Origin: Bradymonadia bacterium
GTDB lineage: Bacteria; Myxococcota_A; Bradymonadia; UBA7976; UBA1532
NCBI GenBank assembly: GCA_046290225.1
Contig: JBKAGE010000073.1
Location: 20,992 to 84,991 of the forward strand
DNA: 64,000 nucleotides
Direction of reading: 5' to 3'
This document shows positions 1,638-41,503 of this stretch, piece after piece. The notes beneath the pieces were generated by a model. The model did not search any database. It was not told the DNA's origin and was given only the letters and a program-made list of their open reading frames with translations. Numbering within the stretch: position 1 is the first letter of the stretch; every line of letters starts with the position of its first letter. The position numbers and the translations under genes are program-made.

Positions 1638-1684
1638 ACGGGACCGGAGCCCCGGAGCCAGACGGGACCGGAGCCCCGGAGCCC
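1638..1684. repeat. Short direct tandem repeat (acgggaccggagccccggagcc x2)
   Basis: Two adjacent copies lie immediately past the stop codon of the 1687 gene. Confidence 0.7.
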
Positions 1685-1686
1685 GA

Positions 1687-2793: not shown

Positions 2794-3137
2794 GGTGCGG
2801 TCTCCTCGGTGGAGCACCTGATCTGTGATCACCGTGGCTTCGAAGTGGCCGCCGGCGGCGCAGAGCAGCGTGCATACACGGGTGTGCATTCCCTTACGGT
2901 GCGGGACGCTCACTGTTTCACTGCCAGTGCGGTATGCATCGTATGTGCCAGCGATGAGACGCCGGAACTACACCTGCAGAGGGTCAGTGCGAAGAGCAGA
3001 AGGTATTGATTTCATGGGTGAGATCAAGACCTTTCTCTACACATTTGGGGCGTTCGATTCGAAAACGATTCCGTCAGCGCTTTCGCCGATGTCGCGTTCA
3101 CATTGTGGACTGTGGCCGTCGAGGCCACGAGGGCAAG

Positions 3138-4529: not shown

Positions 4530-5308
4530 TCTCCAGCGCCGTTCATCCAGGCGCGGACGCGGGCGAGGCGGCGGTACACCGCCTGTCGGGTCATGCCCGT
4601 GGCCCGGGCTGCGTCGGCCACCGTGTCACCGAGGAGCAGGCGCTCCATCACGTGCCGGGTGGCCGTGTCTTGAGCGAAATTGGTCAGGGCGCCATCGACG
4701 GCGAGTCCAGCGACGAGGCGGGCCTCGGAGGCCGCGTCGGAGGCCGGGACCGCCCGGTGAGCAGAGGCCACCTCGGGGGCCTTGCTCTGACGGGCGCGCT
4801 GCAGATCGCGGGCGCGCCAGCGCAGGCGCGCCAGCAGCAGCGACTGCAGGTTGGGCCTGATCTCCGGCTTGAGGCGGGTCGAGGCCCGCTCGAGCAGGTT
4901 GGGCAGGGCATCGGGGTGCGACACCAGCTCTGCCGTCGCGTCCCAGAGGTGCTCCCTCCAGATGTCGCCGTTGGGGCCGGACTCGAGGCCCGTGATCGAC
5001 AACAGCCAACGCGCCACACCGGAGCGGACCGTCTGCCCACGCTCGTCGTGACGCAGCTCTGCCGCGAGGGCTTCGAGGGCACGGCGGTAAATACCGACGC
5101 GCACCGGTGTGTCCAGGTGGCCGGCGGTCTCGAGGTGCAGCACCTCTTCCAGGACCGCAGGGGTCGAGGACTGGCTTTGGAGTGCGGTGGTCAGAGGGTG
5201 CTCTCTTGGATCAGTGCCTGACATCATTCGCCCACTGCTACGGGCCCGGGCCCGTGAGGTGTCCGGGGTGGATCGATCTAAAGCGTTCGCGGTTGAGCTG
5301 TTGCTCAA
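4526..5308 (-). CDS. Divergent ECF sigma-like / HTH protein
   Basis: C-terminal sigma region-4-like HTH (GDTVADAARATGMTRQAVYRRLARVR). ATGA overlap with the downstream membrane protein. The start is uncertain (5308 or about 5227). Confidence 0.5.
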   Translation of the reverse strand: MSNSSTANALDRSTPDTSRARARSSGRMMSGTDPREHPLTTALQSQSSTPAVLEEVLHLETAGHLDTPVRVGIYRRALEALAAELRHDERGQTVRSGVARWLLSITGLESGPNGDIWREHLWDATAELVSHPDALPNLLERASTRLKPEIRPNLQSLLLARLRWRARDLQRARQSKAPEVASAHRAVPASDAASEARLVAGLAVDGALTNFAQDTATRHVMERLLLGDTVADAARATGMTRQAVYRRLARVRAWMNGAGE

Positions 5309-5511
5309 GGCTGCCAGTCCGCTCGGCAGTTGGGAATCTCATACACGCTCACCGCCACAAGCTCCACCCCTGTACCCTCTAGACACACACCGGTGACAGG
5401 GTCTGTCTGCATGAAGCGGTGGGGCCCTTGACCTCAGCTGGACCCCGCTGTCATCTTCCCCAGCTTCATCCGCTGGCCGTCTCGGCCGGTTTCGCGTCTT
5501 CGGAGGTGCCC

Positions 5512-6246
5512 ATGAGCAACGCCACTGAACAACGTCCCACCGCCGTCGTGTTGTGCAGCGGGGGACTCGACTCCACCACATGTATGGCCATCGCCGCTGA
5601 TCGAGGCCACCGGATCGTGGCGTTGTCCTTCGATTATGGTCAGCGTCACCGCTCGGAGCTCGAAGCCGCGAAGCGGGTGGCCACGCACTACGGCGCCGAA
5701 CGCCACTATGTGATGCAGCTCGATTTGTTCACGGCCATCGGGGGATCTGCCCTCACCGACACGGCCCTCGACGTGCCCAAGCACGACGACGTGAGCGAGG
5801 TGAGCCCCGAGATCCCCGTGACCTACGTGCCTGCTCGGAACCTCGTGTTCCTGTCGTATGCCGTGGGCGTGGCGGAGATGGAGCAGGCCGAGCACATCTA
5901 CATCGGGGTGAACGCCATCGACTACTCGGGCTATCCCGATTGCAGGCCCGAGTTCATCGAGGCCTTTCAGGGGGCCGCTCGACTCGCCACCAAAGCCGGG
6001 GTGGAGTCTGCGAGCCCCCGCCACGGGCTCACGCTCCACACGCCCCTCATCAGCTTGACCAAGGCCGGCATCATTCAGCTGGGCCACAGCCTCAGCGCCC
6101 CCCTCGAGCTGACCCACAGCTGCTATGATCCCGTCGACACTGACGAGGGCACCTTCGCCTGTGGTCGGTGCGACGCATGCTTGTTGCGGCTCAAGGGCTT
6201 TGAAGAGGCTGGGATGCGTGATCCCGTGGCCTACCGGGAAGGTTGA
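5512..6246 (+). CDS. queC: 7-cyano-7-deazaguanine synthase
   Basis: [33 protein letters not shown] and CxxCxxC motifs. GGAGG SD precedes ATG 5512. Confidence 0.97.
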
Positions 6247-6911
6247 GCGTGTCCACCATCAACCCCAGACGCTATGCCATCAAAGAGGCCTTCTTCACTC
6301 TGCAAGGCGAGGGGGGACAGGTAGGCCGGGCTGCGGTCTTCTGCCGGTTCACAGGGTGCAACCTCTGGTCGGGGCGGACACAGGATAGAGCCACAGCGCC
6401 CTGCAACTTCTGCGACACGGACTTTGTGGGCACCGACGGGCCTGGCGGAGGTCGGTTCGACGCCCACGCCCTCGCCGAGCACCTGTGGTCGATCTGGCAG
6501 AGCGAGGCTGGTCCTGGAGGTACGCCCTACATCGTCTTCACAGGGGGAGAGCCCACCCTTCAGCTCGATGAGGCGTTGATCGATTGCTGCAAGGCACGAG
6601 GCTTCGAACTCGCCATCGAGACCAATGGCACCCGCGAGGTGCCTGAGGGCATCGACTGGGTGTGTGTCAGCCCCAAGCCCGGCCCGGCGTTGGTCCAGCT
6701 GCAGGGTCAGGCCCTCAAGCTCGTCTACCCCCAACCAGAAGCGGCTCTTCAGCCCGAGATGTTCGTCGACCTCGAGTTCGAACACTTCTTCTTGCAGCCC
6801 ATGGATGGCCCCCAGCAGGCGGAGAACATCCAGGCCGCCACCCGATATTGCTTGAAGCACCCGCAGTGGAGGCTGTCGCTGCAGACCCACAAAATCATCG
6901 GTCTGCCGTGA
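6243..6911 (+). CDS. queE: 7-carboxy-7-deazaguanine synthase (radical SAM)
   Basis: [18 protein letters not shown]...CNFCDTDF (CX14CX2C type), TGGEP, ETNGT, LSLQTHK. Confidence 0.96.
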
Positions 6912-6915
6912 GTGC

Positions 6916-7689
6916 TCACCCCTGGCGGTGGATCGGGAAGGGCCCGAAGGCCTGATCAGTAGACATCACCTCGATGCGGTTGATGTTCACGTGCTCTGGC
7001 AAGCATGTGGCCCAGAAAACCGACTCTGCGATGTCCTCCGCCGTGAGTGGCCGCGTGTTGGCGTAGGGCGCCTCCGCTTTTGCATCGTCACCTTTGAAGC
7101 GCACCCGCGAGAACTCGGTCTCTGCGAGGCCGGGCTCGATGTCGGTCACCCGGACCCCCGTGCCGTGGAGATCGGCCCGCAGGTTGAGGGAGAACTGAGT
7201 GACGAAGGCCTTTGTCGCGCCGTACACGTTGGCGCCGGGGTAGGGCCAGTTCGCCGCCACCGAGCTCATGTTGATCACGTGACCGCGTCGGCGCGCCACC
7301 ATGGCCGGCAGCAACGCCCGTGTGCAATAGAGCAGTCCGTTGATGTTGGTGGACACCATCGTCTCCCAATCGGCCATGTCCACGTCCCAGGCGGGCTCGA
7401 GGCCCAGGGCGAGCCCTGCGTTGTTCACGAGTACCGACACATCGGCGAAGTCCTGGGGTAGGGCCGCCGCTACGGCATCGACCGCGTCGCGATCCGTGAC
7501 GTCGAGGGTGTGGGCCCAGCAGCGCTCGCCGAGCTCTGCTTGCAAGGCCTCGAGACGATCAGCGCGCCGGCCGGTGATGATCACCCGAGCCCCAGCGTGG
7601 GCGAAGCGGCGAGCGGTGGCTTCACCGAAACCTGCCGTGGCGCCGGTGACGAAGACCACGTGTTTTGAGGCGTCGAGAGAAGGGTACAT
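6916..7689 (-). CDS. SDR oxidoreductase, YdfG-like NADP-dependent 3-hydroxy acid dehydrogenase
   Basis: TGATAGFG, NNAGLALG, YGATK, LPEHVNINRIEVM. Confidence 0.9.
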   Translation of the reverse strand: MYPSLDASKHVVFVTGATAGFGEATARRFAHAGARVIITGRRADRLEALQAELGERCWAHTLDVTDRDAVDAVAAALPQDFADVSVLVNNAGLALGLEPAWDVDMADWETMVSTNINGLLYCTRALLPAMVARRRGHVINMSSVAANWPYPGANVYGATKAFVTQFSLNLRADLHGTGVRVTDIEPGLAETEFSRVRFKGDDAKAEAPYANTRPLTAEDIAESVFWATCLPEHVNINRIEVMSTDQAFGPFPIHRQG

Positions 7690-27809: not shown

Positions 27810-28764
27810 AGCGGGCGCGGTAGACCTGGGGCGATACGCCGAAGTGTCGCCTGAAAGCTCGACGCATCACCTCGACACTCTTGAAGCCTGTACGGGTGGC
27901 GAGCGTGCTCAAGGAGAGCTGCGAGCCTTCGAGCTGATTCCTCACCGCCTCGACCCGGCAGCGCTCTACATAGTGAGCGGGCGTGCACTGCAATTGATCC
28001 CGAAAGACGCGGGCGAAGTGTCGTGGGCTCATGGCGGCTCGATGGGCCAGGGCGTCCACGCGCAGGTCGTCGTCCAGGTGGTCTGCGATCCAGTTCTGTA
28101 CACGAGCGAGGCGATCGTCATCGGTGAGGGGGGCCTGAAGGTGGCTGCTGAATTGTGATTGCCCGCCGGGGCGACGCAGGAACACCACCAGCTCACGGGC
28201 CACGGCCTGAGCGATGTCGAGGCCGCAGTCCTGCTCCACCATGGCCAGGGCGAGGTCGATGCCCGCGGTGACCCCTGCAGAGGTCCACACGTTGCCGCTG
28301 CGTACGAAGATGGCTTCGGCGTCGACCTCGATGGCCGGGTGCAGCTCGGCGAGCCGCGCTGCGGACTGCCAGTGGGTGGTGGCGCGGCGACCATCGAGGG
28401 CGCCGGCTGCGGCGAGGTAGAAGGCGCCGGTACACACGCCGGCGAGGCGAGGGCAGGCCATGTGGTGTCGCTCGAGCCATCTGAGCAGGGCCGGATCACA
28501 TCGATCCCCCAGGCGATCGATCATACCGGGAACAAAGAGGGTGTGCGCGGGCCATGCATCATCGAGGGCGTGCTCGGCGTGGAGCACGAGCCCCGAGGCT
28601 GTTGGGATGGGCCCTGGTGTGAGCGCCACGCGCTGGAGCGCATAGGTCGGCGTACCATCTCGAGCCGCTGTAAGGGCGCCGGCGAGGGCGAAGACCTCAT
28701 GGGGCCCGACGACGTCGAGGGCCACACAGCCCGGGTACATGACCATGAGCACGCTCAGCGTCAT
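27796..28764 (-). CDS. GlxA-family AraC transcriptional regulator (DJ-1 sensor domain)
   Basis: GVCTGAF, TTHW, WTSAGVTAGID, RRPGGQSQFS, AraC HTH. Confidence 0.93.
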   Translation of the reverse strand: MTLSVLMVMYPGCVALDVVGPHEVFALAGALTAARDGTPTYALQRVALTPGPIPTASGLVLHAEHALDDAWPAHTLFVPGMIDRLGDRCDPALLRWLERHHMACPRLAGVCTGAFYLAAAGALDGRRATTHWQSAARLAELHPAIEVDAEAIFVRSGNVWTSAGVTAGIDLALAMVEQDCGLDIAQAVARELVVFLRRPGGQSQFSSHLQAPLTDDDRLARVQNWIADHLDDDLRVDALAHRAAMSPRHFARVFRDQLQCTPAHYVERCRVEAVRNQLEGSQLSLSTLATRTGFKSVEVMRRAFRRHFGVSPQVYRARFSLP

Positions 28765-29444
28765 GTAAGGCCTCGCGCCACCATGCGGGCGGTCTCCACG
28801 CCCTCTCGCCAGTGTGGGCCCTTGATGGCCATGAGCATCGCTTTGACGTGCTCAGGTGCCGAGTCTGGGTGGCCGGCGTCAAAGGGCGGTGCGGGGGCGT
28901 ACTCGAGGCCCAGCTGGATGCCCTGAGCCACCTCGGGGCTGATCAGCTCGGCGACGAGGGTGAGCGCGAAGTCGATGCCTGCTGTGACGCCCCCGCCCGT
29001 GAACAGGTGCTCATCGCGCACGACCCGGCCGGCGACGTGCTCGGCGCCGAAGGCTGCGAGGGCGTCGGTGAAGGCCCAGTGGGTCGTGGCTTTGCGCCCT
29101 TTGAGCAGACCCGCGGCGCCGAGCAGGAGCGCCCCAGTGCACACCGAGGTGATGGCCTGAGCATTCTGAGCCTGTGCTCTGATGAAGCTCAACAGCGGTG
29201 CGTCGGTAAGCCCTGCGATGGTGCCGTTGCCGCCAGGGATACAGATGACGTCCAGTGGAGGGCAGGACTCGAAGTCCGTGGTGGCCATGATCTGCAGGCC
29301 CCCGGTGTCGGATCGTACGAGGCCTGCCTCCGCAGCGACAAGGTGCACGTGGACGCCTGGCAGGTGGCTGAACACCTCGAAGGGGCCCATGGCGTCGAGT
29401 TGGGTGAAGTCGGGGTAGAGAACAATGCCGATGTGCTCGATCAC
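28761..29444 (-). CDS. DJ-1/PfpI family protein (isonitrile hydratase-like)
   Basis: FTQLD..GP, SVCTGALLLGAAGLL, GGVTAGIDF, QLGLEYAPAPPF. Confidence 0.92.
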   Translation of the reverse strand: MIEHIGIVLYPDFTQLDAMGPFEVFSHLPGVHVHLVAAEAGLVRSDTGGLQIMATTDFESCPPLDVICIPGGNGTIAGLTDAPLLSFIRAQAQNAQAITSVCTGALLLGAAGLLKGRKATTHWAFTDALAAFGAEHVAGRVVRDEHLFTGGGVTAGIDFALTLVAELISPEVAQGIQLGLEYAPAPPFDAGHPDSAPEHVKAMLMAIKGPHWREGVETARMVARGLT

Positions 29445-29539
29445 GGAGATCTCCTCGTTGAGAGATCTTCACTGTAGAGCACTGGCTGTATGGCAGACAG
29501 GACGTTCGGCCCACGATTTCTGCCTTTGGGCAGAGTGCC

Positions 29540-31687
29540 TCAGGGCAGGGCTTCGATGCATCGATCGAGGGCTGCCTCCCAGTTGGGCATGATGTCTCTG
29601 CCCACGCCGTTGGTCTCCTCGTAGTGATCCCCCGGCGGCTCGCTCAGGTAGCCCACCTCTTCGTAGTTGTAGCTGGGCACCATGTAACCGAGGAAGTCCA
29701 TGCCCAGGCCGATGAAGAAGGGGAATTCGCCGGGGAGGCGCTCGTAGACATAAGGGCCCTCTGGTGTGTTGTCCCAATCGGGCGGGTTGGTCTGGTCGGC
29801 CTTGACGATGCAGGGCTGATCGCCAGGGCTCTCAGGATCGGTGGGCAGGCCCTGATCGTCACAGGTTGGCGCCACACGGCGACCTTCGACGTCGCCGATG
29901 ACCGGGGTCTGCACCCGCGACCTGCCGGGGTAGCCGCCTACGAGGGTTTCAGGGAAGACCTCGCCGGGGGCGGTGAAGAAGGTCACTGGCCCCAGGCCCA
30001 CGACTGCGGTCTGGGTGAGCAGCTGGGGCAGGGCCGGCGCATACTGAGCGCCCACCCGGGTGACGTTGTAGATGTCGTGGACCAGCACGCCGAGAGTGAA
30101 GGCCGCGAGCTGGAAGACGCGGTTCTCGACCGAGGCGAAGAAGGTCTGGGTGGCGAAGCGCAGATCGGGGGCGTCGAGGGTGGTGAAGGCTCCATCTCCA
30201 GCGCCAAGCACTCGGGAGGCGAGGGTCTGACCGATGGCATCGGCGGCGGCGAAGGTGTGGCGGAGGCCGCCGTCGGTGTAGTCGTTGCCTGCATAGTCCC
30301 TGGCGCCGCCAGGGCCCGGGTAGATGAGGCCACCCACGGCACCGACGTACATGAGGGTGACACCACCGAAGCCTTCGAGGGCAGGCTTCATCTCACCATC
30401 CACCCCCATGGTGGCGGGCAGGCCCTCTCGGATGTACTTGCGCACAAAGTGGGGGTAGTCCGAGGTGAGGAAGGGGTTGTCGTCCCAGAGCACCTCGGGG
30501 TGGTTGGCGAAGGACATCAGGGTGCCGATGGGGCTGCCGTCGATGCCTTCGAGGCGCACCACGGGCACATTGTCGTCGAAGATGTAGGGGGTCCGGCTGT
30601 CGTTGATGGCCAGCCCCTCAGTGCCCACGTCGAGGACCGCCACCTTTGCCGTGGCAGGCTTCAGGTTGGCCACGGCTTCGGTGATGCCGGCGATGGTCTG
30701 ATCGTGGATCAGCTGCTCGAACTGCGCGTCCACCCCTCGGGCGAGGGGCAGCGGATCGCCAGGGCCCCATTGACCGGCGGTGTCGGGGGCTTCGTGGTTG
30801 TGGGTGGCGCCCATGACCAGCAGGTCCACCTCCAGCTCTGGGGGCAGATCCTCGAAGATCTTGCGGCTCTGGGGCCTCAGGAAGCCGATGGTGTCCACCA
30901 CGGCGAAGGCCACGGTGACATCGCGCTGTCGCATGACCGCGATCTGCACCTTGAGATCGTCGTGGGCGTACTTGCTGACACAACAATCCACCGCGTCACA
31001 GCCGATCTTCTCTTCAGGGCAATATTGCGCAGGCCGGCCGGAGCTGAAGCCCGCGATCCACATGCCCTGCATCACCCCGTCGCCTTCACCCTCGTCCGGG
31101 CCCGGATATCCAGCGTCGTCGGGGCAGAGGCCGTCGTAACCGCAGTCGTTCCACCGGCCTTCGATGTCGGGGGGATTGAAGTTGAGGGTGTTGTCATCTT
31201 CCAGGCCCTCTGGTCGGGCGGTCTCGAAACCGGAAGGGGTCACGACCTTGCTCACCGCTGCTGCGAGCAAAGTCGGATCACCCTCACCCATACACCCTGG
31301 CGCTCCGGGGCAGACAGTGGGGTTGGCAGGGGGCTCCCAGTAACAGATCTGATGCCCCTCTACATCCTGGCAGGTCTCTTCGGGGCGACAGTCGGCGTCG
31401 GTGACACAGCGACGATCGAAAACAGACTCACAGGCACAGTCCACCACACGCTGCAGGAGTGGATCACACATCACGGCTTCGCCACAGCCGGGTGTGGCGT
31501 CAGGTGGTCCAGCGTCTGCCACGACCTCTGCGTCGTTCATGGTGGAGGCATCGGCGCCTGCGCCCTGGTCAGGGCTCAGCTCTGCATCGGAGGTGGGGGT
31601 CGGGGTGTCGTTGCTGCTCTCGTCATCACAGGCGGTGAGCAGCGTCAAGGCGGTGCCGAGGCACAGGAGGGCGAGGGCGTGGCGCAC
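29540..31687 (-). CDS. Neutral/alkaline ceramidase-like lipoprotein
   Basis: Lipobox LTAC, Cys-rich N-terminus, ATHNHEAPD, ANHPE, PGEVFPE, HYEET. Confidence 0.7.
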   Translation of the reverse strand: MRHALALLCLGTALTLLTACDDESSNDTPTPTSDAELSPDQGAGADASTMNDAEVVADAGPPDATPGCGEAVMCDPLLQRVVDCACESVFDRRCVTDADCRPEETCQDVEGHQICYWEPPANPTVCPGAPGCMGEGDPTLLAAAVSKVVTPSGFETARPEGLEDDNTLNFNPPDIEGRWNDCGYDGLCPDDAGYPGPDEGEGDGVMQGMWIAGFSSGRPAQYCPEEKIGCDAVDCCVSKYAHDDLKVQIAVMRQRDVTVAFAVVDTIGFLRPQSRKIFEDLPPELEVDLLVMGATHNHEAPDTAGQWGPGDPLPLARGVDAQFEQLIHDQTIAGITEAVANLKPATAKVAVLDVGTEGLAINDSRTPYIFDDNVPVVRLEGIDGSPIGTLMSFANHPEVLWDDNPFLTSDYPHFVRKYIREGLPATMGVDGEMKPALEGFGGVTLMYVGAVGGLIYPGPGGARDYAGNDYTDGGLRHTFAAADAIGQTLASRVLGAGDGAFTTLDAPDLRFATQTFFASVENRVFQLAAFTLGVLVHDIYNVTRVGAQYAPALPQLLTQTAVVGLGPVTFFTAPGEVFPETLVGGYPGRSRVQTPVIGDVEGRRVAPTCDDQGLPTDPESPGDQPCIVKADQTNPPDWDNTPEGPYVYERLPGEFPFFIGLGMDFLGYMVPSYNYEEVGYLSEPPGDHYEETNGVGRDIMPNWEAALDRCIEALP

Positions 31688-31773
31688 AGTGACTCCAGGG
31701 GCGGTGTCAGAAGAAGATCTGCTGGTCGAGACAGACCTTCTGCCTACACCGGGTGCCCAGAGCAGAGCAAGTG

Positions 31774-31995
31774 TCAGCTCAGTCGGGCGCGCAGGGCTTT
31801 GACTGCGGCGTCGAACTCGGCTTCAGAGACGACGTCGACCTCTTCGTCAGGGGCCACGACGCGGGTCATGTAGTTCATCTCGCGTTTGAACTCGCCGGTC
31901 TGCCAGTCGTAGGCCAGCACGTCCATGCCACCCTCGGGGGTGCGGATGGCCTTCACCGGCCGGGCGCCGACGATGCAAAAACGGGGGAGCTGCAT
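31774..31995 (-). CDS. Small protein (73 aa), candidate immunity protein of the upstream RelA/SpoT toxin
   Basis: Starts 36 bp after the toxin stop on the same strand. GAGGAG SD and coding-like codon usage. Confidence 0.7.
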   Translation of the reverse strand: MQLPRFCIVGARPVKAIRTPEGGMDVLAYDWQTGEFKREMNYMTRVVAPDEEVDVVSEAEFDAAVKALRARLS

Positions 31996-32031
31996 GGGGA
32001 GTATCTCCTCGAATGAAGTGCGCCAGAGACG

Positions 32032-35000
32032 CTAGGAATCAGATGCGAAGGTGCCGCTCGAAGGCGACAGCCCGTCCGTGGGCCCCGGATCGGTGGAGAG
32101 GCCCGAGCCACCGTCGCCGAGGGCGCTGTCATAGGCGGCACGAGATTGGGCGTTGAGCTGCTCGATGCGGGCGAGCTCGTCAGGGGTGAGCGCGCGGCGC
32201 TCGGCCACCGCTCGGGCCTGGATGGTTCTGATCTCTTCGTAGATCTTGTGACCAACTCCACCCTTGACCTCGATGATCTGCCGCATGTGCAGCTGAATCT
32301 CAACGACGTGACCATTGCTCATGCGCACGTTGAGCAAAATATCGCGGTAGCCCTGGTCCGTCGGGTTGGAGAACCGATCCTTGAGTTTGGTGATCTCAAA
32401 CTGGCCCTGAATCTGCTCCAGCCCTCGATACACATCCTGGATGTTCTCGTAGATGATGCTGGTGCGTGCGAGGTCGGTGAGTCGACTGACATCACCACCA
32501 TAATCCGCCGCGAGCTTCTCCTCTGCACGAGGACGACCCTTCAGGTTCGGCGGGATCTTGGCCTCACCGCCAGTGGCGCCGGCGATGTCGTTGGTGACGG
32601 TGGCCAGCTCTTCTTGGGCCACCGCTGCCTGTTGTAGCGCTGGTCATCAGCTGCCCTCTGCGGGCCGCCGCTGTGCCTCAACGTCAGACCGTCGCTGGAC
32701 TGGGCGCTGGGTACGCCAGAGAGCTTCGTCGTACACCGAGCGAGATTGTGCGTTGAGCTGCTCGATGCGGCCGAGCTCCCCAGGCGAGGCACGGTTCTCG
32801 GCCTGGCGGTGGCCTCGATGGTACGGATCTCTTCGCGAGCTGTGACCTGCACCGCTCTGACCTGGGATGATCTGCTTCATGTGCAGCTGGATCTCGACAA
32901 CGCCATTTCATACGCACATTGAGAAATATCGCGGTAGCCTGATCTGCGGGTTGGCGAAGCGATCCTTGAGCTTGGTGACCTCAAAGCGGCCTGGATTGTT
33001 CAAGCCGCGGTACACGTCATGGTTCGTAGATGATGCTGGTGCGTGCGAGGTCAGTGAGGCGGCTGACGTCACCACCATAATCCGCTGCGAGCTTCTCTTC
33101 GGCGCGGGGCCGACCCTTCAGGTTCGGTGGGATCTTCGCCTCGCCACCCGTTGCACCTGCAATGTCGTTCGTGACAGTGGCCAGCTCTTCTTGAGCCACC
33201 GCAGCCTGTTCGTACAGCTCGTCTAGATCTGTTGCCCTCTGCGGACCCCCAGGTTGAGCCTCTGCGTCTGCACCTTCAGCGGACTTCGTGCCGCTGGTGC
33301 CACCAGACATCGCATCGTCGTACACCGCGCGAGACTGGGCGTTGAGATCTTCGATGCGGGCGAGCTCTTCAGGGGTGAGCGGGCGGTTCTCGGCCTTGGC
33401 CTTGGCCTCGATGGTCCGAATATCCTCGTAGAGCTTGTGACCTGCGCCACTCTTCACTTCGATGATCTGCTTCATGTGAAGCTGAATCTCGACGACGTGG
33501 CCATTGCTCATACGCACATTGAGCAGAATGTCGCGGTAACCCTGATCTGTGGGGTTGGCGAAGCGATCCTTGAGCTTTGTGACCTCGAACCGACCTTGGA
33601 TTTGCTCCAAGCCGCGATACACGTCATCGAGAGATTCGTAGATGATGCTGGTGCGTGCGAGGTCGGTGAGTCGACTGACGTCACCACCATAATCCGCCGC
33701 GAGCTTCTCCTCAGCCCGAGGCCGACCCTTCAGGTTCGGCGGGATCTTGGCCTCACCGCCAGTGGCGCCGGCGATGTCGTTGGTGACGGTGGCCAGCTCT
33801 TCTTGGGCCACCGCTGCCTGTTGGTATAGCTCGTCCAGATCAGCTGCCCTCTGCGGGCCGCCAGGCTGTGCCTCAACGTCAGCACCGTCGCTGGACTTGG
33901 GGGCGCTGGTACCGCCAGAGAGCGCTTCGTCGTACACCGAGCGAGATTGTGCGTTGAGCTGCTCGATGCGGCCGAGCTCCTCAGGCGTGAGGGCACGGTT
34001 CTCGGCCTTGGCGGTGGCCTCGATGGTACGGATCTCTTCGTAGAGCTTGTGACCTGCACCGCTCTTGACCTCGATGATCTGCTTCATGTGAAGCTGAATC
34101 TCGACGACGTGACCGTTGCTCATACGCACGTTGAGCAAAATATCGCGGTAACCCTGATCTGTGGGGTTGGCGAAGCGATCTTTGAGCTTCGTGACCTCGA
34201 ACCGGCCTTGGATCTGCTCCAGGCCGCGGTACACGTCATCAAGGCTCTCGTAGATGATGCTGGTGCGTGCGAGGTCAGTGAGGCGGCTGACGTCACCACC
34301 ATAATCCGCTGCGAGCTTCTCTTCGGCGCGGGGCCGACCCTTCAGGTTCGGTGGGATCTTCGCCTCACCACCTGTAGAGCCAGCGATGTCATTGGTGACG
34401 GTGGCCAGCTCTTCTTGGGCCACCCGCGCTTGTTCGTACAGCTCGTCCAGATCTGCTGCCCTTTGCGGGCCGCCAGGCTGAGCCTCGACATCTGCACCCT
34501 CGGTGGATTTGGGGCCGCTGGTGCCGCCAGACATTGCTTCGTCGTACACCGAGCGAGACTGTGCGTTGAGCTGCTCGATGCGGCCGAGCTCCTCAGGCGT
34601 GAGGGCGCGGTTCTCAGCTTTGGCCCGAGCCTCGATAGTGCGGATCTCCTCATAGAGGGAGTGCCCAGCGCCGCTCTTGACCTCGATGATCTGCTTCATG
34701 TGAAGCTGGATTTCGACGACGTGGCCGTTGCTCATACGCACGTTGAGCAAAATATCGCGGTAACCCTGATCTGTGGGGTTGGCGAAGCGATCTTTGAGCT
34801 TTGTGACCTCGAACCGACCTTGGATCTGCTCCAAGCCGCGGTACACGTCATCAAGGCTCTCGTAGATGATGCTGGTGCGTGCGAGGTCGGTCAGTCGGCT
34901 GACGTCACCACCATAGTCCGCTGCGAGCTTCTCCTCTGCTCGAGGCCTGCCCTTCAGGTTTGGCGGGATCTTGGCCTCACCGCCAGTGGCGCCGGCGATG

Positions 35001-37285
35001 TCGTTGGTGACAGTGGCCAACTCCTCTTGAGCCACCCGCGCCTGTTCGTATAGCTCGTCCAGGTCGGCCGCCCTCTGCGGACCAGTGGGGCCAGTCTCCT
35101 TCGGGGCCCCGTCAGGGGTTGTTTTGTTCGCAGACCGAACGCTGCCTGTCTCAATGTCACCTGCTGCGGCGAGAGCATCGGCATTTTGAGCGCCTGGTGC
35201 TGCAATGTCACCACCAGCAGTGGAGAGTCCGTCATCGACTCCACTGGTTGCAGGCGTCACATCGCCCCCGGCGGTGTTGGCAGGCAGGTCATCGAGGTTG
35301 AGCGTGGTGCCGGGGCTGTTGAGCGCACCTGTGCTGTTGCGGGCGGCGCCGACGCGAGCGAGATCGTCACCGGAGCCCTTGAGGCTGATGGAGATCAGGG
35401 CCCCAGTGAGCGCTGCGGACTGCAGCAGACGCAGCAGCTCGTCGGTGCGCTGTTGCGGATCAGGGTTCTTCATGATCCGCTCGTAATCGGCCAGGTACTT
35501 GTCGGCCAGGATGATGCCCTGACCGGCGTCGGCGCTGAACTGACCGATGAGTACGCCCCTGGCGATGTTGGTGCCGTTGCGGCCATTCATGATGACCGTG
35601 GCGCCCTTGACCCAGACACCGGCGAAGACGCTGCTCACGATGGTGAGGGCGTCGAGGGCGTCGTCCTGAGGTGAGCTGAAGCCCTCGGCGTGTCGCTGGC
35701 TGATGCGGATCGCTGCGCCGGCGGAAGCCGCCACCGCGGAGGCGAGCACGAGGCCGGCGACGACGCGGCTGCCGGGGATGGGCAGCACCGCCAGCGCCAG
35801 TGCCCCGAGGCCTGTTGCGAGGCCTACAGTGTCGAAGAACTCGGAGATCGAGTCCCAGAAGCTCTGGCCATCGGTCTGGAACTCCTGGGCGATGGGGGTG
35901 CCCGCAGCCTCCGCTGGGATCTCCAACTGGATCATCCCCGGGGGGTAGCGGTTGCCGCTGCGCCAGCTGCTGATGGCGTCGTCGATGGCCGATGCGGCGT
36001 CACTGCCGGTGCCGGTGTATTCACCTGTGCAGCGGCGATCGGCTGGGGCGGTGACGTCGACGAGCTTCCAGGTCTGGCGGCTGCCCGACTGCACACAGGC
36101 GACGAAGGCCTGCAAGGTGGTGACGCGCGCCTGCTCGCGATCGACGTGCACCGCCTTGAAGGGGATGCGCTCTCGGCCATTGGTGCTGGCCATGCGCTCT
36201 TCGAACTTCTCGATCTGGTTGTCGTAGGCTTGCTGCTGCTCTGGGGTCAGGGCGCGGCTGCCCTCTTGCTCCGAGGCCGACTTGATCGCGTCTACATAGC
36301 GACGCTGCCCCTCGAGGCGAGCGGTGGGATCAGTGGTGGCGGCGTTCTCGAGGGCACCCGAGGCCATCTCGCCCTCAGCGATCACGGTGAGGGGGTACTC
36401 GAAGTACTCCGGCTCCCGCCGCTGGCGCTCGCTTGACGAATAGAACACCGAGCGGCACACGATCTTGTGGTTGCCGGGGATCTCTGGGGTGTACTCGACC
36501 TTGTAGTCGTCTCCCAGGATCTCCATGGCGTCGGTGTCGTGCTTTGAAGACATCGACGCGTCGCGCACGACCGACCACTCATACGAGTAGTAGGAGCCCT
36601 GGGCGTACATCTCGGCGTTGCGCTCGATGCGGTACGACAACGCCGTGCCCGGCACCGCCACCTTGACGTCGGGCTCGGCCCGGATGTGGGCGTGACGATC
36701 GGCGATGGTCTCCGAAGTGTCCTGCTGGTAAGAGCCCCCTGCACCTGAGGAGACGCCCGCCCGGGTCAGGAGGGCCTGAGCGGTGCGCAGCTCGGAGCCG
36801 CTCATGTCGCCGATGATGTCGTCGACGAGGCGGGTGCCATACTTGCGCTCGTACCCGTCGGCGATGGCCTGCACGATCTCCGGGGGCTGGTTCAGGATGC
36901 GGTAGATGCCCTGCTCGTCGGTCCCCCAACCTTCGATGGCCCCCCGGATCTTCTCGATGTCCTGAGTGACCTGGGCCTCCATGTTCGCCGTACCAGCGTC
37001 TTCCTGGAACTGGATGGACCGCATCTCGTTCGACTGGCTATTGGTGCTGTCCGGAGGCGGCGGCGCTGAGAAGCCACCCTGGAAGCCGCCCATGAGCTCC
37101 GCCGACTGGCCGGACTGGCTCTGCATTTGGAGGGCTGGCGCAGGGGCAGGCGCGGGTGCAGGCGCCTGTGCGGGGGCCGGTGCGGGGGCTGGGGCTGCAG
37201 GGGTCTTGTCGGACACGACGGCTCCTGAGGTACCAGTGGGGGCGACAGGTGGGGGCGACAGCGTGTAGGTATACTGAAACTTCAC
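32032..37285 (-). CDS. Giant polymorphic-toxin-like protein: annexin-like repeat, hydrophobic segment, five tandem RelA/SpoT synthetase domains (frameshifted in repeat 4 as assembled)
   Basis: ORFs 33017-37297 and 32032-32622 are joined by a degenerate copy of the repeat. Each intact repeat has LKGRPRAEEK / DLART / GYRD / EIQLH. Annexin motif GWGTDEQGI. The likely start is GTG 37285 after GGAGGT. Confidence 0.85.
32035..35090 (-). repeat. Tandem array of five 612-bp (204-aa) units
   Basis: The equivalent position recurs at 35068, 34456, 33844 and 33232 (612-bp spacing) and at 32651 (581 bp, shortened by deletions). Confidence 0.95.
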
Positions 37286-37335
37286 CTCAGCTGTCACCTC
37301 CAGGGGGCAATGTTTTGAACCGAAACGCTACATCG

Positions 37336-38208
37336 ATGTCACACCGCTTTTCGGCCATGAGCCCACGAGGCCTCACCCTGGCCCTCGTCGCAGCCTTTGC
37401 GATGTCGTGTGGTGGTGGCCCGGCGCCGAAGAAGACCACCGAGCGAAAGAGCGGCGGTGGCCTGGCGGATGCCCTGGCAGAGAAGGCCGCCGAGGCCGCT
37501 GGCCCCAAGGCGGTGATCACCCTGGCGCTCTTCAGCACAGAGGCTGCCCCTGACGACGCCGACAAGGCGGCGAGGGCCATGACGCTGAAGGCTGCTCAGT
37601 GGCTCAAGGCGCCATCAGGTCGATGGCAGGGGGTGGCGCCTGAAGGCATCCCACCCGAGATCATGGTGATCCCCATGGACAAGAGCGCGCTGCCTTTCAA
37701 TGTGGAGGCGCTCATGGCCGAAGCAGGCCCCCACGCGAAATCTCTCGCAGAGGCGCGCTCAGTCATTTTCGTTCGTTACACTGGCAAAGCCCTCGATGGT
37801 GATGCCCAGGTGAAGGGCGTTTCTGCCGTGGCCGGCATGCTCGCCGACGCCCACACTGCGCCCGTGACCGACTTGAGCACCTTGAAGACCTTCGGCGCTG
37901 ATGCGTGGCACACCGTGTTGACCAGTGGAGACTGGCGGAAGGTGCAGGTGCACGTCTCTGCAGAGCTCGGCCCCGATGGCCTCGGGATGTTCCGCACTCG
38001 GGGTATGGCAAAATTCGCTCTGCCCGATTTGGAGCGAGGTGGGATCCCCGAAGAAAAGGCCCGGGTGGCCTTCACGCAATTCCAGGCCATCTACCAGGCC
38101 CTCGTGGCCCATGGACCCGCGGCACCGGGCGATACCGTCGGTGGGGTGAAATTGAAAGCATGCGCAGGGCCTGCGGAACTCTACGACCAGGGCTGCGTCT
38201 CTTACTGA
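37336..38208 (+). CDS. Lipoprotein of unknown function (TRGxxKFxLPDLE motif, DUF4261/DUF2314-like)
   Basis: Lipobox AMSC, RTRGMAKFALPDLE, C-terminal Cys pair. Confidence 0.65.
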   Translation: MSHRFSAMSPRGLTLALVAAFAMSCGGGPAPKKTTERKSGGGLADALAEKAAEAAGPKAVITLALFSTEAAPDDADKAARAMTLKAAQWLKAPSGRWQGVAPEGIPPEIMVIPMDKSALPFNVEALMAEAGPHAKSLAEARSVIFVRYTGKALDGDAQVKGVSAVAGMLADAHTAPVTDLSTLKTFGADAWHTVLTSGDWRKVQVHVSAELGPDGLGMFRTRGMAKFALPDLERGGIPEEKARVAFTQFQAIYQALVAHGPAAPGDTVGGVKLKACAGPAELYDQGCVSY

Positions 38209-38263
38209 CGGAGAGGCCCTTTGTCGTGTGAGGGCCTCGAAGACTCAGCTCGAGGAACACCAC

Positions 38264-39763
38264 ATGAGCCAGAAGACCTTCGATCGACGCACGTTCCTCA
38301 AGGGGGCCGCGTTGGGCCTCTCGGTGCCTCTGATCGCCGGGTGTGACGACGAGTCCACTGCGGATGACATGCCTGATGACGATGTCGTCGATGCACCAGA
38401 TGCCGGTGAGCCTGATCTGGGTGAGGTCGCTGATGCCGAGCCCCCCGCGCCACACCCTGCTGACGCAGAGATCGACGATGTGATGTACCCCCGGGCAATC
38501 CTCGCCGGCGCCATGACGTCGACTGGAGCGCTGATCCGAGGTTTTCGAGATCCGGACGCAGAAGGCTCACCTCGCCTGCTGGTCTGGCCCGAAGATGATG
38601 ATGGTCCCGGCGAGACCGTGATCGATCGCGTGGTCTCTCCTGAAGAGGGTCATCTGAACCTTGAACTCGACACCCTCGAACCGGGCACTCGCTACGCCTT
38701 TGCCTTCTTCGAAGGAGAAGGGCTTGAGCCCGAGGCGCTGACGCGATCTCCCGAAGGTCGTTTTCGCACCGCACCTGCGCCAGGTGAGTCGCCGGCTCTG
38801 ACCCTCGCTGCCTCGGCATGCACTGCCTTGAGGTTCGCCCCCTGGCCCGGGCTCGACATCAGCGCCGAGGCTCGACCGGACGTGTTCTGCCATCTCGGTG
38901 ACATGGTCTACAACGACGGCGCCGAGAGCCTGGAGGAGTTCCGAGCGGGCTGGCAAGCCACTCTGGAGACGCCGGAGTATCGCGCCCTCTTCGCCGAGGC
39001 TGGGGGCTACTTCACCTGGGACGATCACGAGCTCACGGATAACTCGGCGCTCTACACCCTGCCCCCGGAGGTCCGGGCCCGTGGGGTTCAGGCCTTCTTC
39101 GAGGCGTTGCCCATCCGATCGAGGGGCATTGAGGGCATCGAGGCCGAGCAGTTCTGGATGAGCCATCGGTGGGGGCTCACGGCGGAGATTTTCATCCTCG
39201 ACTGTCGTGGAGAGCGTCGTCCGGAGACCGCAGGTACCCCCGAGGCACAGTACATCAGCCCGGAGCAGATGCGCTGGCTCAAAGAGGCCCTCGAAGCGAG
39301 CCCTTGCCGGTTCAAGGTGATCCTCAACTCGGTGCCCATCACCACCTACGCCGAGCGTTATCCCGCCGCCGACGACCGATGGCAGGGCTATGCCGCACAG
39401 CGAGACGAGCTGCTCGACTTCATCACCGGTGAAGACGGTGGAGCGGGTGTGGAGGGGGTCTGGTTCTTGTCGGGGGATTTCCACCTCGGTGTGGTGTCCG
39501 CCGTCGACGCCGAGGGCCCTCGGGCGGGCATTCGGGAGATCCTCGCCGGCCCTGGGGGCAGCATCACCAACCCGCTGGGGCTGTTGCCAGAGCGCAACCC
39601 CGAGCTGGCCGCCGAGTTTTTTCCCCCCGAGCAGTTCGAGTACGTGAGCGCCGCCAAGGCCAGCACCGTGCTCACCTTCGATCCGGAAGCAGGCACTGTG
39701 CGGGTGCACTTTGTGGAGGGAGAGACGGGGGAGACCCTCTTCGACGTCACCTACGATGCCTGA
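38264..39763 (+). CDS. phoD: Alkaline phosphatase D family, Tat-exported lipoprotein
   Basis: DRRTFLK Tat motif, HLGDMVY, WDDHE, LDCR, SGDFH. Confidence 0.88.
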   Translation: MSQKTFDRRTFLKGAALGLSVPLIAGCDDESTADDMPDDDVVDAPDAGEPDLGEVADAEPPAPHPADAEIDDVMYPRAILAGAMTSTGALIRGFRDPDAEGSPRLLVWPEDDDGPGETVIDRVVSPEEGHLNLELDTLEPGTRYAFAFFEGEGLEPEALTRSPEGRFRTAPAPGESPALTLAASACTALRFAPWPGLDISAEARPDVFCHLGDMVYNDGAESLEEFRAGWQATLETPEYRALFAEAGGYFTWDDHELTDNSALYTLPPEVRARGVQAFFEALPIRSRGIEGIEAEQFWMSHRWGLTAEIFILDCRGERRPETAGTPEAQYISPEQMRWLKEALEASPCRFKVILNSVPITTYAERYPAADDRWQGYAAQRDELLDFITGEDGGAGVEGVWFLSGDFHLGVVSAVDAEGPRAGIREILAGPGGSITNPLGLLPERNPELAAEFFPPEQFEYVSAAKASTVLTFDPEAGTVRVHFVEGETGETLFDVTYDA

Positions 39764-40562
39764 GCGTGGAGTGGTCGAGCCTTCAGCGCCCATCGCCGTC
39801 GACGCTGTCAATGTGCCTGCCTTCGCGCTCACCGAGGACTATGACCCCTTCGAGTCCGACCTTCATCAACACCACCGGCATCAGTTGCTGTATGCAGTTT
39901 CGGGGACTCTGAGCCTCGAAGCCGAAGGCAGCGTCTGGCTGCTGCCCCCTCAGCGAGCGGCCTGGATCGGCGCCGAGGTGCCCCACCGCGCCTGGGCGCG
40001 ACAGCCAGTGGCCATGAGGACGGTGTTCTTTCGCCCCGAGGCCTTCTCCACAGCCCCTCGTGCCCGGTGCTGTGTGTTCTCTGTCGACGCCCTCGCCCGA
40101 GAGATGATCGTGTACGCCATGCGCTGGCAGGGTGAGCTCGAACCCTCAGAAGAGGTCGTGGCCCGGCCGTTCTTCGAGGCCCTGGCGGCTTTGTGTACGC
40201 AATGGAGCGCGGCGCCAGCACCCTGGCGCCTGCCCGCGCCTCGGAGCCCTCTGGTGGCGCGGGCCATGGGCCATGTGCAGGACCACCTCGATGGCGCGCT
40301 CACCCTCGCCGTCGTGGCAGAGAAAGTCGGTGCATCCAGCCGCACGCTCAGCAGGCGCTTCTCCACAGAGGCGGGCATGTCGTGGGGGCAGTACGTGCGC
40401 CGGGCGCGGATCGTCAAGGCCATGGAGCTCCTGCTCCAGCCAGGGTACTCGGTCACCGAAGTGGCTTTCTCGGTGGGCTTCGAAAGCCCTGGGGCCTTCA
40501 CACACGCCTTCAAGGCCCTCACCGGGCAGCGCCCGCGGGATTATCGCACCGCGCCGCGCTGA
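39756..40562 (+). CDS. AraC-family transcriptional regulator (cupin sensor)
   Basis: HQHHRHQLLYA..G, LPPQRAAWI, SRTLSRRF, VTEVAFSVGF. Confidence 0.92.
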   Translation: MPERGVVEPSAPIAVDAVNVPAFALTEDYDPFESDLHQHHRHQLLYAVSGTLSLEAEGSVWLLPPQRAAWIGAEVPHRAWARQPVAMRTVFFRPEAFSTAPRARCCVFSVDALAREMIVYAMRWQGELEPSEEVVARPFFEALAALCTQWSAAPAPWRLPAPRSPLVARAMGHVQDHLDGALTLAVVAEKVGASSRTLSRRFSTEAGMSWGQYVRRARIVKAMELLLQPGYSVTEVAFSVGFESPGAFTHAFKALTGQRPRDYRTAPR

Positions 40563-41503
40563 GCAGCGCTCACCTCGGCACCGAGCAGGCCGTACACGCC
40601 GTACTGCACCATGTAGGGCAGCGCATACTCAGGGAACGTCTTCGCGGCCTGCTCGGCGAGCGCCTTGTGATGCGCGGCGGCTTGCTCGCCCTTGAGCGCA
40701 GCTTGGGTCAGGCCGTGTTGGGCGACATAGCCCTTCACCAGAGCGCCCATGGCGTCGAGGTAGCGTTGCTGCGCGCTCACAGCCTGCGCCACAGGGGCCG
40801 TTTGACCGCGGCCGCCGTATACAGTGGCATCGGGCCAGGCCTTCAGCTCGTCGAGGGCTTTGCTCCACTTCGAAAGATCAGGCCGCGGCGCGCCGTCGAC
40901 GATGCCACCCTCGAGCCAGGCGTGGGCTTTGTGGTGGACCAGATCGCCGACGACGAGTGCTTTCTTCGCCGGGATCCACGCCACGGTCTGCGTGCTCGAC
41001 ACGCCTGGGTGCTTCAACGTCTTCAGCTCGATGCGCTCGCCGTTCTTCAAGGTGAGCGTGTGCGCCCCAGTGAAGGTGATGTCGACCCGGGCCTCCGCGG
41101 GGTAGGTGGCCTCGGTGAACATCTTGGCCATCTGCACGAAGTAGTACTTCTTGTAGGCGTGCACCCCAGGGATCGCCTTCGCCGTGGCGTCGCTCGCCAC
41201 CACCTTGGCGCCGAGGGCCTGAAATGGCCCGACCCCATTGAACTTGTCCGGGTTGGGGTGGGTGACGACGACATGACTGATGGGGACCTTGGTGCGCGCC
41301 TGGATGTCCTTGATGACCGACTGGGCGAGTGCGGGGGTGAACTGAGCGTCGAAGACCACCACCTGATCAGGGGTGACGTAGTACCAGGTGTGGGTGTCGA
41401 AGCCGGCCGCCGGTGAGGTGTAGCGGAACAGCCCGGTCTCGGCCTGGGCTGCAGGCAGGGCGAACGTCAACATGAGGCAGGCGGTGAGGAGCGTACGGAG
41501 CAT
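40541..41503 (-). CDS. Exported MBL-fold metallo-hydrolase-like protein
   Basis: Signal peptide. VFDAQF, THPNPDKFNG (degenerate HxHxDH), GDLVH. Confidence 0.8.
   Translation of the reverse strand: MLRTLLTACLMLTFALPAAQAETGLFRYTSPAAGFDTHTWYYVTPDQVVVFDAQFTPALAQSVIKDIQARTKVPISHVVVTHPNPDKFNGVGPFQALGAKVVASDATAKAIPGVHAYKKYYFVQMAKMFTEATYPAEARVDITFTGAHTLTLKNGERIELKTLKHPGVSSTQTVAWIPAKKALVVGDLVHHKAHAWLEGGIVDGAPRPDLSKWSKALDELKAWPDATVYGGRGQTAPVAQAVSAQQRYLDAMGALVKGYVAQHGLTQAALKGEQAAAHHKALAEQAAKTFPEYALPYMVQYGVYGLLGAEVSAAQRGAVR

Follow-up and report, generated by a model that had tools for sequence, protein, structure and literature searches.

We analyzed a 64,000-nucleotide stretch of DNA (the window) from the genome of a Bradymonadia bacterium (assembly GCA_046290225.1, contig JBKAGE010000073.1, positions 20,992 to 84,991). 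On its minus strand, from 37297 to 31774, lies a locus that encodes a large protein with a tandem array of five RelA/SpoT-type alarmone synthetase domains, of which one is broken in the sequence as assembled, and just downstream, a small protein of 73 amino acids (aa). We think it likely (roughly 75%) that this is a polymorphic-toxin locus, with a carrier of the annexin-Ntox3 family, an amplified C-terminal tip that resembles Tas1 (also known as Apk1), and a downstream immunity protein. The toxin and the carrier are of known kinds; what is new is the five-fold array, this combination of carrier and tip, and the family of the 73-aa immunity protein.

The repeat unit is related to Tas1

An initial annotation, made from the sequence without database searches, had identified the repeated domains as RelA/SpoT synthetases, and Pfam agrees. 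RelA_SpoT (PF04607) matches the main open reading frame (ORF) in three full stretches, with 73.9 bits against a curated cutoff of 27, and matches the ORF that encodes the fifth unit with 29.4 bits. No HD, TGS, or ACT domains were found in the ORFs of the locus at E ≤ 0.1 in the Pfam scan, which was also as annotated. NCBIfam gave just partial matches to RelA/SpoT models, far under their cutoffs; this is expected because the synthetase domain stands alone.

The nearest solved relative of a single unit, by sequence, is Tas1 (6ox6_A, E = 3.5e-7). When we compared a profile of 38 sequences to solved structures, Tas1 was again first (E = 2.8e-22), and the next match was YwaC, a housekeeping synthetase (E = 2.4e-9). 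The fold tells the same story: searching with an AlphaFold2 model of one unit (predicted local distance difference test [pLDDT] of 89.6), Foldseek returned Tas1 first (E = 1.3e-10, TM scores of 0.67 and 0.70) and the exported synthetase SaEAS (8vx3) second. There were matches to 77 chains in the PDB at E ≤ 0.001, and among the matches listed, all are RelA/SpoT-type synthetases.

Across the 38 relatives, the invariant residues include D56 (the aspartate of DLAR), R89, P93, G97 and D100 (in GYRD), E114 (the glutamate of ExQ), and Y134; K34, R38, K42, Y98, and R99 are nearly invariant. We take the catalytic motifs of synthetases to be the basic N-terminal motif, the aspartate of DxxR, the GYRD-like loop, and ExQ. 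The motif residues are kept in units 1, 2, 3, and 5, as had been noted for the intact domains. Judging from sequence and predicted structure, the repeat unit is a RelA/SpoT-type synthetase domain of the small-alarmone-synthetase type, without hydrolase or regulatory domains, and it is closer to Tas1 than to housekeeping synthetases by sequence, by profile, and by fold.

The copies are old and under purifying selection

Repeat search and alignment both show five direct repeat units, with start-to-start spacings of 612, 612, 612, and 577 bp. (Tandem Repeats Finder, with a longest period of 500, missed the 612-bp array, and a direct-repeat search caught it.) All five are on the minus strand. Unit 1 (34514 to 35125), which consists of a linker and a synthetase domain, is intact, as are unit 2 (33902 to 34513) and unit 3 (33290 to 33901). 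Unit 4 (32713 to 33289, 577 bp) is broken. Unit 5 (32101 to 32712) has an intact catalytic core and five indels in its first ~90 bp, which are part of the linker. The linkers that join the units are ~38 aa long and rich in Gly, Ser, and Pro.

The five domains had been described as near-identical. This is so for the proteins, as units 1, 2, 3, and 5 are 88 to 98% identical over 166 codons, but the DNA is just 78 to 88% identical. Most of the differences are silent: among these four units, the synonymous divergence (dS) is 0.49 to 0.84, and the ratio of nonsynonymous to synonymous divergence (dN/dS) is 0.03 to 0.13. Such high dS with such low dN/dS implies that the copies are old and that each of them has been preserved as a functional domain. 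The divergence is also a mosaic: identity between units 3 and 5 is 96.9% over their first halves and 75.7% over their second halves, which points to partial gene conversion. We considered whether the whole array might be an assembly artifact, with copies collapsed or expanded, and rejected this, since the units differ at 12 to 22% of their bases and mostly at silent sites. Because every intact unit appears to be under purifying selection, the array looks like a selected multi-dose design rather than a recent accident.

Other proteins with this domain have fewer copies. Of the 150 best representatives, 143 carry a single copy, the other seven carry two, and two is the maximum; in four of these seven, the copies form close tandems and are 54 to 100% identical to each other. 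At the 12 metagenome loci with the domain, there was one copy in every case. Because two-copy proteins recur, we view the array in the window as the extreme of a recurrent tendency.

A shared carrier with variable tips

The part of the toxin upstream of the array belongs to a family. Residues ~62 to 695 (35213 to 37114, minus strand) are 38 to 45% identical to 22 proteins of 874 to 1265 aa that have other C-terminal tips. This conserved carrier, or trunk, is preceded by a leader that is rich in Pro and Ala (about residues 14 to 56; 37130 to 37258). It includes a single annexin repeat at residues 112 to 168 (36794 to 36964; Pfam PF00191, E = 4.2e-8, 33.6 bits, cutoff of 25), Ntox3 at residues 179 to 310 (36368 to 36763; Pfam PF15536, E = 4.5e-22), and hydrophobic helical segments at residues 487 to 533, 550 to 570, and 621 to 639 (35381 to 35839; hydropathy in a 19-residue window). 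The initial annotation had described a "globular middle region" after the annexin repeat; the region is there, but it has a recognized identity, Ntox3.

Ntox3 is found in all 22 of the close relatives of the carrier, and 12 of these also have an N-terminal eCIS_core/DUF4157 domain. A 23rd and weaker relative has eCIS_core only, so that 22 of the 23 have Ntox3 and 13 have eCIS_core. Pfam does not find DUF4157 in ten of the carrier relatives, and three of these begin at the annexin repeat. As for the initial annotation's suggestion of a probably predatory myxobacterium, the only pointers to it are the source names of some relatives found in our searches (Labilithrix sp., Myxococcota, and Haliangiales).

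The C-terminal ~200 to 400 residues vary among the carrier relatives: one ends in a CdiA_C tRNase and another in a deaminase, and none of the 22 has a RelA/SpoT domain. In the relatives (P0021 to P0042) as in the window's protein, Ntox3 is internal; after it come ~400 conserved residues that include hydrophobic helices, and the variable tip comes last. Since Ntox3 lies inside the shared part while the tips vary, it is an internal part of the carrier here and not the variable tip. In the annexin-Ntox3 family, Ntox3 may be a carrier or entry module instead of a toxin. By sequence, a conserved N-terminal part is joined to differing C-terminal tips, which is the mark of polymorphic toxins in the sense of the relevant passages of PMC3482391.

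Toxins of this kind have been described in Haliangium ochraceum, with a PVC-metallopeptidase (DUF4157) domain, annexin, and Ntox3 (PMC3482391, from 2012, and PMC3894181, from 2014). In the passages on these proteins, the order of annexin and then Ntox3 is the same as in our carrier, and membrane segments were likewise predicted. However, those passages treat Ntox3 as the terminal toxin, whereas it is internal here and in the 22 relatives. They do not report a RelA/SpoT tip on a Haliangium-type carrier.

The same domain on other proteins

An exhaustive search found 3961 representative proteins that match the synthetase domain at E ≤ 1e-3, of which 139 match at E ≤ 1e-30. In 121 of the 151 proteins that we examined, no more than 40 aa separate the end of the domain from the C terminus. 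Within the phylum, it is present in 18 of 401 genomes, with one or two loci in each except for the window's genome, and at these loci it lies within large frames of 1483 to 9037 aa. Some of the large frames with the domain also hold eCIS_core, EndoU, or annexin. We asked if those large frames are akin to this carrier, and they are not: the similarity is confined to the synthetase domain, and the other parts are unrelated. In one genome, the domain and an immunity gene are flanked by two VgrG-type spike genes (L037, G315:C200, about 1656 to 7168); the domain is split there over two frames, and its C-terminal half shares an open frame with the immunity part. Across these sequences, the domain behaves as a swappable polymorphic-toxin tip that is placed on many unrelated large proteins.

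Two other sets of proteins were observed. First, in genomes G262 and G167, giant frames of 3317, 3747, and 9037 aa (L031, L032, and L033/L034), which encode multi-toxin proteins, contain the synthetase domain internally, along with eCIS_core, EndoU, a peptidase M64-like stretch, or annexin. Second, three metagenome proteins of ~245 aa (P0003, P0004, and P0007) are single-domain relatives that open with a hydrophobic, signal-like segment, which in one of them ends in a cysteine that could be a lipobox. From their sequences, these may be versions of the enzyme that are exported through Sec.

The 73-aa protein is a candidate immunity protein

The 73-aa ORF (31774 to 31995, minus strand) begins 36 bp past the stop codon of the unit-5 ORF, and its ATG is preceded by GAGGAG, which we call a ribosome-binding site. 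Its position, the minus-strand coordinates of the locus, and the order of the parts are as initially annotated, according to the ORFs, Pfam, and hydropathy. The protein has nine relatives, at 58 to 84% identity, with 28 invariant columns. No named family in Pfam or NCBIfam matches it. Comparison to the sequences in the PDB, using either the single sequence or a profile, gave no match of note and none to Tis1, which is the immunity protein of Tas1.

The pairing of the two genes recurs. Outside the window's own genome, a relative of the 73-aa protein is encoded within 1.5 kb downstream of the domain at 8 of 19 genome loci, and it is just downstream at 7 of the 12 loci that we refetched. (The loci without the partner include domains that are buried in giant proteins and one domain at a contig end.) The 73-aa family is present in 14 of the 401 genomes, and 11 of those 14 also carry the domain; viewed from the small gene, the domain is within 1.5 kb at 8 of 13 genome loci other than its own. 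Among 44 metagenome loci of the 73-aa family, the domain is upstream and on the same strand at 12, with a gap of at most 81 bp at nine of these.

Modeling also suggests that the two proteins bind. A model of the complex of the 73-aa protein with a synthetase unit scored 0.80, as compared to 0.00 for the best of three controls. Of 157 solved complexes, 116 reached such a score, as did 2 of 215 mismatched pairs, counts that are rough because we used our own alignments. At least 96% of contacts are shared between the runs, and the pLDDT of the partner is at least 91. The predicted interface includes the near-invariant enzyme residues K42, K87, Y134, R149, and E155. By a hand count by eye, units 1 and 2 each match unit 5 at 28 of the 31 interface positions, and unit 3 matches it at 27.

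The model of the 73-aa protein itself (pLDDT of 92.7) has five strands and two helices. Foldseek found no match to it in the PDB at E ≤ 0.001. When VIA-align compared the model to 48,161 chains, Tis1 (6ox6_B) ranked third, with a Z score of 4.0 and a root mean square deviation of 3.7 Å over 63 residues, which is below the level of a clear match. Overall, a candidate cognate immunity gene lies directly downstream of the toxin gene, as in other polymorphic toxins, and its product is predicted to bind the tip. Gene order, conservation, and the complex model all indicate that the 73-aa protein probably protects the producer, and the initial annotation's view of it as an immunity gene holds up, given that the adjacency recurs in other genomes and that binding is supported by the model.

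Comparison with known systems

The closest known system is Tas1/Tis1 of Pseudomonas aeruginosa (PDB 6ox6), in which Tas1, since renamed Apk1, is a type VI effector. Like the array unit, Tas1 is a lone synthetase domain at the C terminus of a delivered protein, and a small immunity gene adjoins it. However, Tas1 and the unit are just 24% identical, Tas1 has one copy where the window's protein has five, and Tis1 has no detectable sequence similarity to the 73-aa protein. The carriers differ as well: according to the part of PMC12691689 that describes it, Tas1 has a carrier of the PAAR/Rhs type.

That study (mBio, 2025) surveyed exported alarmone synthetases (EAS), starting from a search with Apk1. 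In its relevant sections, they are on secretion-associated carriers, seven of which have DUF4157, and Tas1-like relatives make ppApp, ppGpp, or both. The unit belongs to the same clade of enzymes, and the link to DUF4157 matches the family of our carrier, although the protein in the window does not itself have DUF4157. The words "tandem," "annexin," and "Myxococc" do not appear in the main text of PMC12691689, and "repeat" is used there solely for the SKWP repeats of XopAD.

Delivered proteins with more than one RelA/SpoT domain are not new either. The RelA/SpoT toxin tip and the two-copy XopAD effectors were noted in 2012, in a passage of PMC3482391. XopAD proteins are type III effectors that are set apart from the window's toxin by having two copies, an SKWP-repeat carrier (PMC12691689), and plant targets. 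The toxic small alarmone synthetases (toxSAS) FaRel, FaRel2, PhRel, and CapRel also resemble our system, in that a RelA/SpoT synthetase is neutralized by the product of an adjacent small gene (as described in parts of PMC7229694 and PMC11782079). They differ in that they are stand-alone cytoplasmic proteins, some of which act on tRNA, whereas the domain in the window forms the tip of a large carrier, and its nearest solved relative, Tas1, acts on nucleotides.

Thus, the initial annotation's proposal of a new toxin-immunity system does not stand, because the carrier (PMC3482391 and PMC3894181) and exported synthetases similar to Tas1/Apk1 (PMC12691689) are already described in the sections of these papers that concern them. 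The narrower suggestion of an undescribed architecture, with annexin, a membrane segment, and multiple synthetase domains, survives in part: the carrier and two-copy RelA/SpoT proteins were known, but the passages of PMC3482391, PMC3894181, and PMC12691689 on these proteins contain neither the five-fold array nor the pairing of this carrier with this tip, and the family of the 73-aa protein is absent from them as well. Our search of a limited set of literature on tandem or multiple toxin domains and on Ntox3 found no description of a multi-copy array of the synthetase domain.

Evidence against a delivered toxin with an immunity protein

Several observations, which concern export, the partner gene, and the reading frame, weigh against the polymorphic-toxin reading. 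First, the protein showed no signal for export. Pfam finds no eCIS_core/DUF4157 or other export domain in the toxin, we recognized no signal peptide by eye in its leader, and when we searched other frames of 28000 to 41000 with the 23 carrier relatives as queries, no lost DUF4157 head was found. The initial annotation's description of a polymorphic effector fits with respect to the shared carrier and the swappable tips, but the protein has no recognizable secretion or trafficking domain at its N terminus.

A contractile-injection route is possible. The genome has a complete contractile-injection locus (contig C82, about 194000 to 211000; L098 and L099) with two sheath genes, two gp19-type tubes, a CIS_tube protein with LysM, a spike hub, gp25, baseplate J, and P2-I. 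However, this locus is on a separate contig, and nothing ties it to the toxin gene. Cargo of extracellular contractile injection systems (eCIS) would have an eCIS_core domain or be encoded in or beside the eCIS locus, and the toxin has neither feature. After the contractile-injection locus come proteins with FHA, VWA, PEGA, or thrombospondin repeats. The genome's only eCIS_core/DUF4157 protein is a short ORF of 243 aa on contig C34 (226898 to 227128; L100:4752-5483), and it does not contain a recognized toxin domain.

Second, the partner gene is often alone, as is the domain; overall, loci of the 73-aa family that have no domain nearby outnumber those that do. The gene pair that homologs had been expected to share is present at the 8 domain loci given above, but the other 11 of the 19 do not have a 73-aa relative within 1.5 kb; similarly, the domain is not within 1.5 kb at 5 of the 13 genome loci of the 73-aa family, nor is it upstream at 32 of the 44 metagenome loci (for 5 of the 44, the available upstream sequence was shorter than 300 bp). 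Those relatives that are most similar to the 73-aa protein (65 to 72% identity) are orphans, without a toxin, in a glycolysis-secG context. At the locus that we analyzed with Pfam (L054:8926-9222), the orphan has secG on one side and a TetR regulator on the other, within a gap-pgk-tpiA-secG-[gene]-TetR-pheA stretch, and five other loci (L053, L060, L062, L067, and L068) have the same pattern of ORF sizes. Also, since the solved structure of the Tas1-Tis1 complex exists, the success of the complex model may partly reflect memory of it.

Another orphan relative (45% identity; L083:8307-9231) speaks for the immunity reading, as it is encoded head to head with a 232-aa HD_4 protein, which has the fold of small alarmone hydrolases. 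From this gene arrangement, the two may be a two-part defense against alarmone-synthetase toxins.

The break in the fourth unit

Third, as sequenced, the toxin is not encoded by one gene. The locus reads, in order, as a 1426-aa ORF (33017 to 37297), a broken stretch, a 196-aa ORF (32032 to 32622), and the 73-aa ORF. The first of these encodes the carrier, units 1 to 3, and the first ~60 core codons of unit 4, and its frame closes at 33017, inside unit 4. The 196-aa ORF has a GTG start and encodes the intact core of unit 5 and a 30-aa tail of Gly, Ser, and Pro. Therefore, the single gene of ~1,750 aa that was initially proposed, if frameshifts were repaired, stands with respect to its five units but not with respect to the frame, as unit 5 is in a separate ORF. 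In unit 4, the first ~270 bp are intact and are followed by 10 deletions (35 bases in all) and an in-frame stop codon (33017 to 33019); the unit is in frame only up to DLAR, and the parts with GYRD and ExQ are out of frame.

Either the assembly is wrong at unit 4 or the gene yields a three-domain toxin, with unit 5 cut off, and we consider the odds to be about even. If there was an error in the assembly or the consensus, for which we see an even chance, then the true gene is a single frame of ~1750 aa with five working domains. Assembly and polishing fail most often in repeats, and real neutral decay is expected to bring many substitutions per indel. The indel events, about 15 in all, are packed into ~390 bp, from roughly 33025 to 32640, and the remaining ~2.7 kb of the array is free of them. 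By substitutions, the identity to the nearest unit is hardly lower in the broken half (86.8%) than in the intact half (89.1%). Downstream of the break, the core of unit 5 and the 73-aa ORF are undamaged, and dN/dS for unit 5 is about 0.1. On the other hand, the other genes in the window are long intact frames, so the assembly is not generally ridden with indels; the indels also extend beyond homopolymers; and no second version of this stretch is present elsewhere in the assembly. In a public sequencing run that contains a small share of the stretch (0.06), two short contigs span only 33692 to 34150, at 95 to 99% similarity, which leaves unit 4 uncovered. The pattern of the indels fits a local consensus error somewhat better than it fits decay.

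That the break is real seems to us a serious possibility, although we rate it a little below even odds. The toxin gene would then be in early decay, or it would have been remodeled into a three-domain toxin with a cut-off fifth domain, and the locus would be retained mainly for an immunity gene that is still useful. The indels do stand in the sequence as given, the protein also does not have the DUF4157 head that is present in 13 of its 23 relatives, orphan immunity genes are common in the 73-aa family, and the related locus in G315 likewise has the domain split across two frames and the immunity part intact. However, the damage is limited to 390 bp and spares unit 5, which is not what neutral decay past a frameshift predicts. 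A short head can be normal, given the carrier relatives in which Pfam finds no DUF4157 or which start at the annexin repeat. And by eye, the GTG of the unit-5 ORF is preceded by just a weak AGG, without an in-frame ATG. Because unit 4 is broken and an export domain is missing, the functional state of the present copy is uncertain.

Proposed mechanism and alternatives

If this is a polymorphic toxin, then the first ~700 residues (annexin, Ntox3, and the middle part with hydrophobic helices) are most likely a carrier for export and for entry into target cells, and would take the C-terminal array into the target. Each unit, by its similarity to known synthetases, would move pyrophosphate from ATP onto a purine nucleotide. 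By analogy to Tas1, the acceptor is most likely an adenine nucleotide, which would form (p)ppApp and deplete ATP, with guanine nucleotides as the alternative. The tip would have been amplified to five tandem units joined by linkers. In the complex model, the 73-aa protein sits on the synthetase domain over conserved residues, and it would thereby shield the producer. Orphan 73-aa genes in bacteria without the toxin fit defense against an incoming toxin, which argues that the targets are bacteria. The multiplication of units might serve to raise the dose per delivery, to release units at the linkers, or to let domains cooperate.

A more specific proposal is tentative, and we would not bet on it. 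In this proposal, the array is a multi-warhead design, with selected working pyrophosphokinases on one polypeptide (or cut apart at the linkers), so that each delivery would bring several enzymes and each toxin would require at least five immunity proteins. The 73-aa protein would be the founding member of a widespread family of immunity proteins, perhaps related very distantly to Tis1 in structure, and bacteria that do not produce the toxin would have retained it as orphan defense genes among housekeeping genes and, once, beside an alarmone hydrolase.

We considered two explanations in which the protein is not an interbacterial toxin. The protein might be an exported alarmone synthetase for signaling outside the cell or for scavenging nutrients, like SaEAS from Streptomyces. 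SaEAS is the second-best match to the fold, some single-domain relatives have an N-terminal segment that resembles a signal, and such enzymes are documented in sections of PMC12691689. However, genes of the SaEAS type do not have adjacent immunity genes, according to those sections, whereas this locus has a conserved partner that is predicted to bind; the domain is borne here by a carrier of polymorphic toxins, on which the alternative tips include nuclease and deaminase toxins; and Tas1 scores far above every other solved synthetase. We consider this explanation improbable. Still less probable is a cytoplasmic toxin-antitoxin or phage-defense module of the toxSAS type (FaRel or CapRel), with the 73-aa protein as the antitoxin: having a small neutralizer gene beside a RelA/SpoT toxin is as in such modules (in the parts of PMC7229694 and PMC11782079 that describe them), but this toxin is joined to an annexin-Ntox3 carrier of ~700 aa that has membrane segments (a real break would leave just unit 5, cut off, as a stand-alone domain), its relatives occur at the termini of giant proteins with several toxins and next to VgrG genes, and the profile search at E ≤ 0.01 lists Tas1 and housekeeping synthetases but no molecule that is named as a toxSAS of the toxin-antitoxin type.

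Neighboring genes

The genes that flank the locus are of ordinary kinds, such as DJ-1/PfpI, an AraC regulator, PhoD, and lipoprotein-like ORFs. On the same strand and 86 bp downstream of the candidate immunity gene is a 715-aa ORF (29540 to 31687), which has no Pfam match and has an N terminus of the lipoprotein type (a cysteine after a hydrophobic stretch). Another lipoprotein-like ORF without a Pfam match (about 37333 to 38208, plus strand) diverges from the toxin gene; given its position, there is scant room for a promoter for the toxin gene, and a longer N terminus of the toxin is ruled out. A scan for promoters and terminators from 31400 to 37700 gave counts at the level of shuffled sequence (1 versus 0.8 and 4 versus 3.1).

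Significance

Enzymes of the Tas1 type are reported, in a passage of PMC12691689, to be extremely fast, at about 100,000 molecules per minute. At such a speed, a single molecule ought to suffice for a target cell. Nevertheless, four to five copies have each been retained intact here over a silent-site divergence of 0.5 to 0.8, which raises the question of why dose or cooperation between domains would matter for this class of toxins. The locus is also a natural system in which to test how a single small immunity protein handles a toxin that is multivalent. Because tandem pairs of the domain are found elsewhere (7 of 150 proteins have two copies), the window may be the extreme of a wider habit. 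Finally, the 73-aa family would be a family of immunity proteins for alarmone-synthetase toxins that is named in neither of the profile libraries that we searched (Pfam and NCBIfam), and its orphan copies, in contexts without the toxin, would fit an acquired defense against such toxins.

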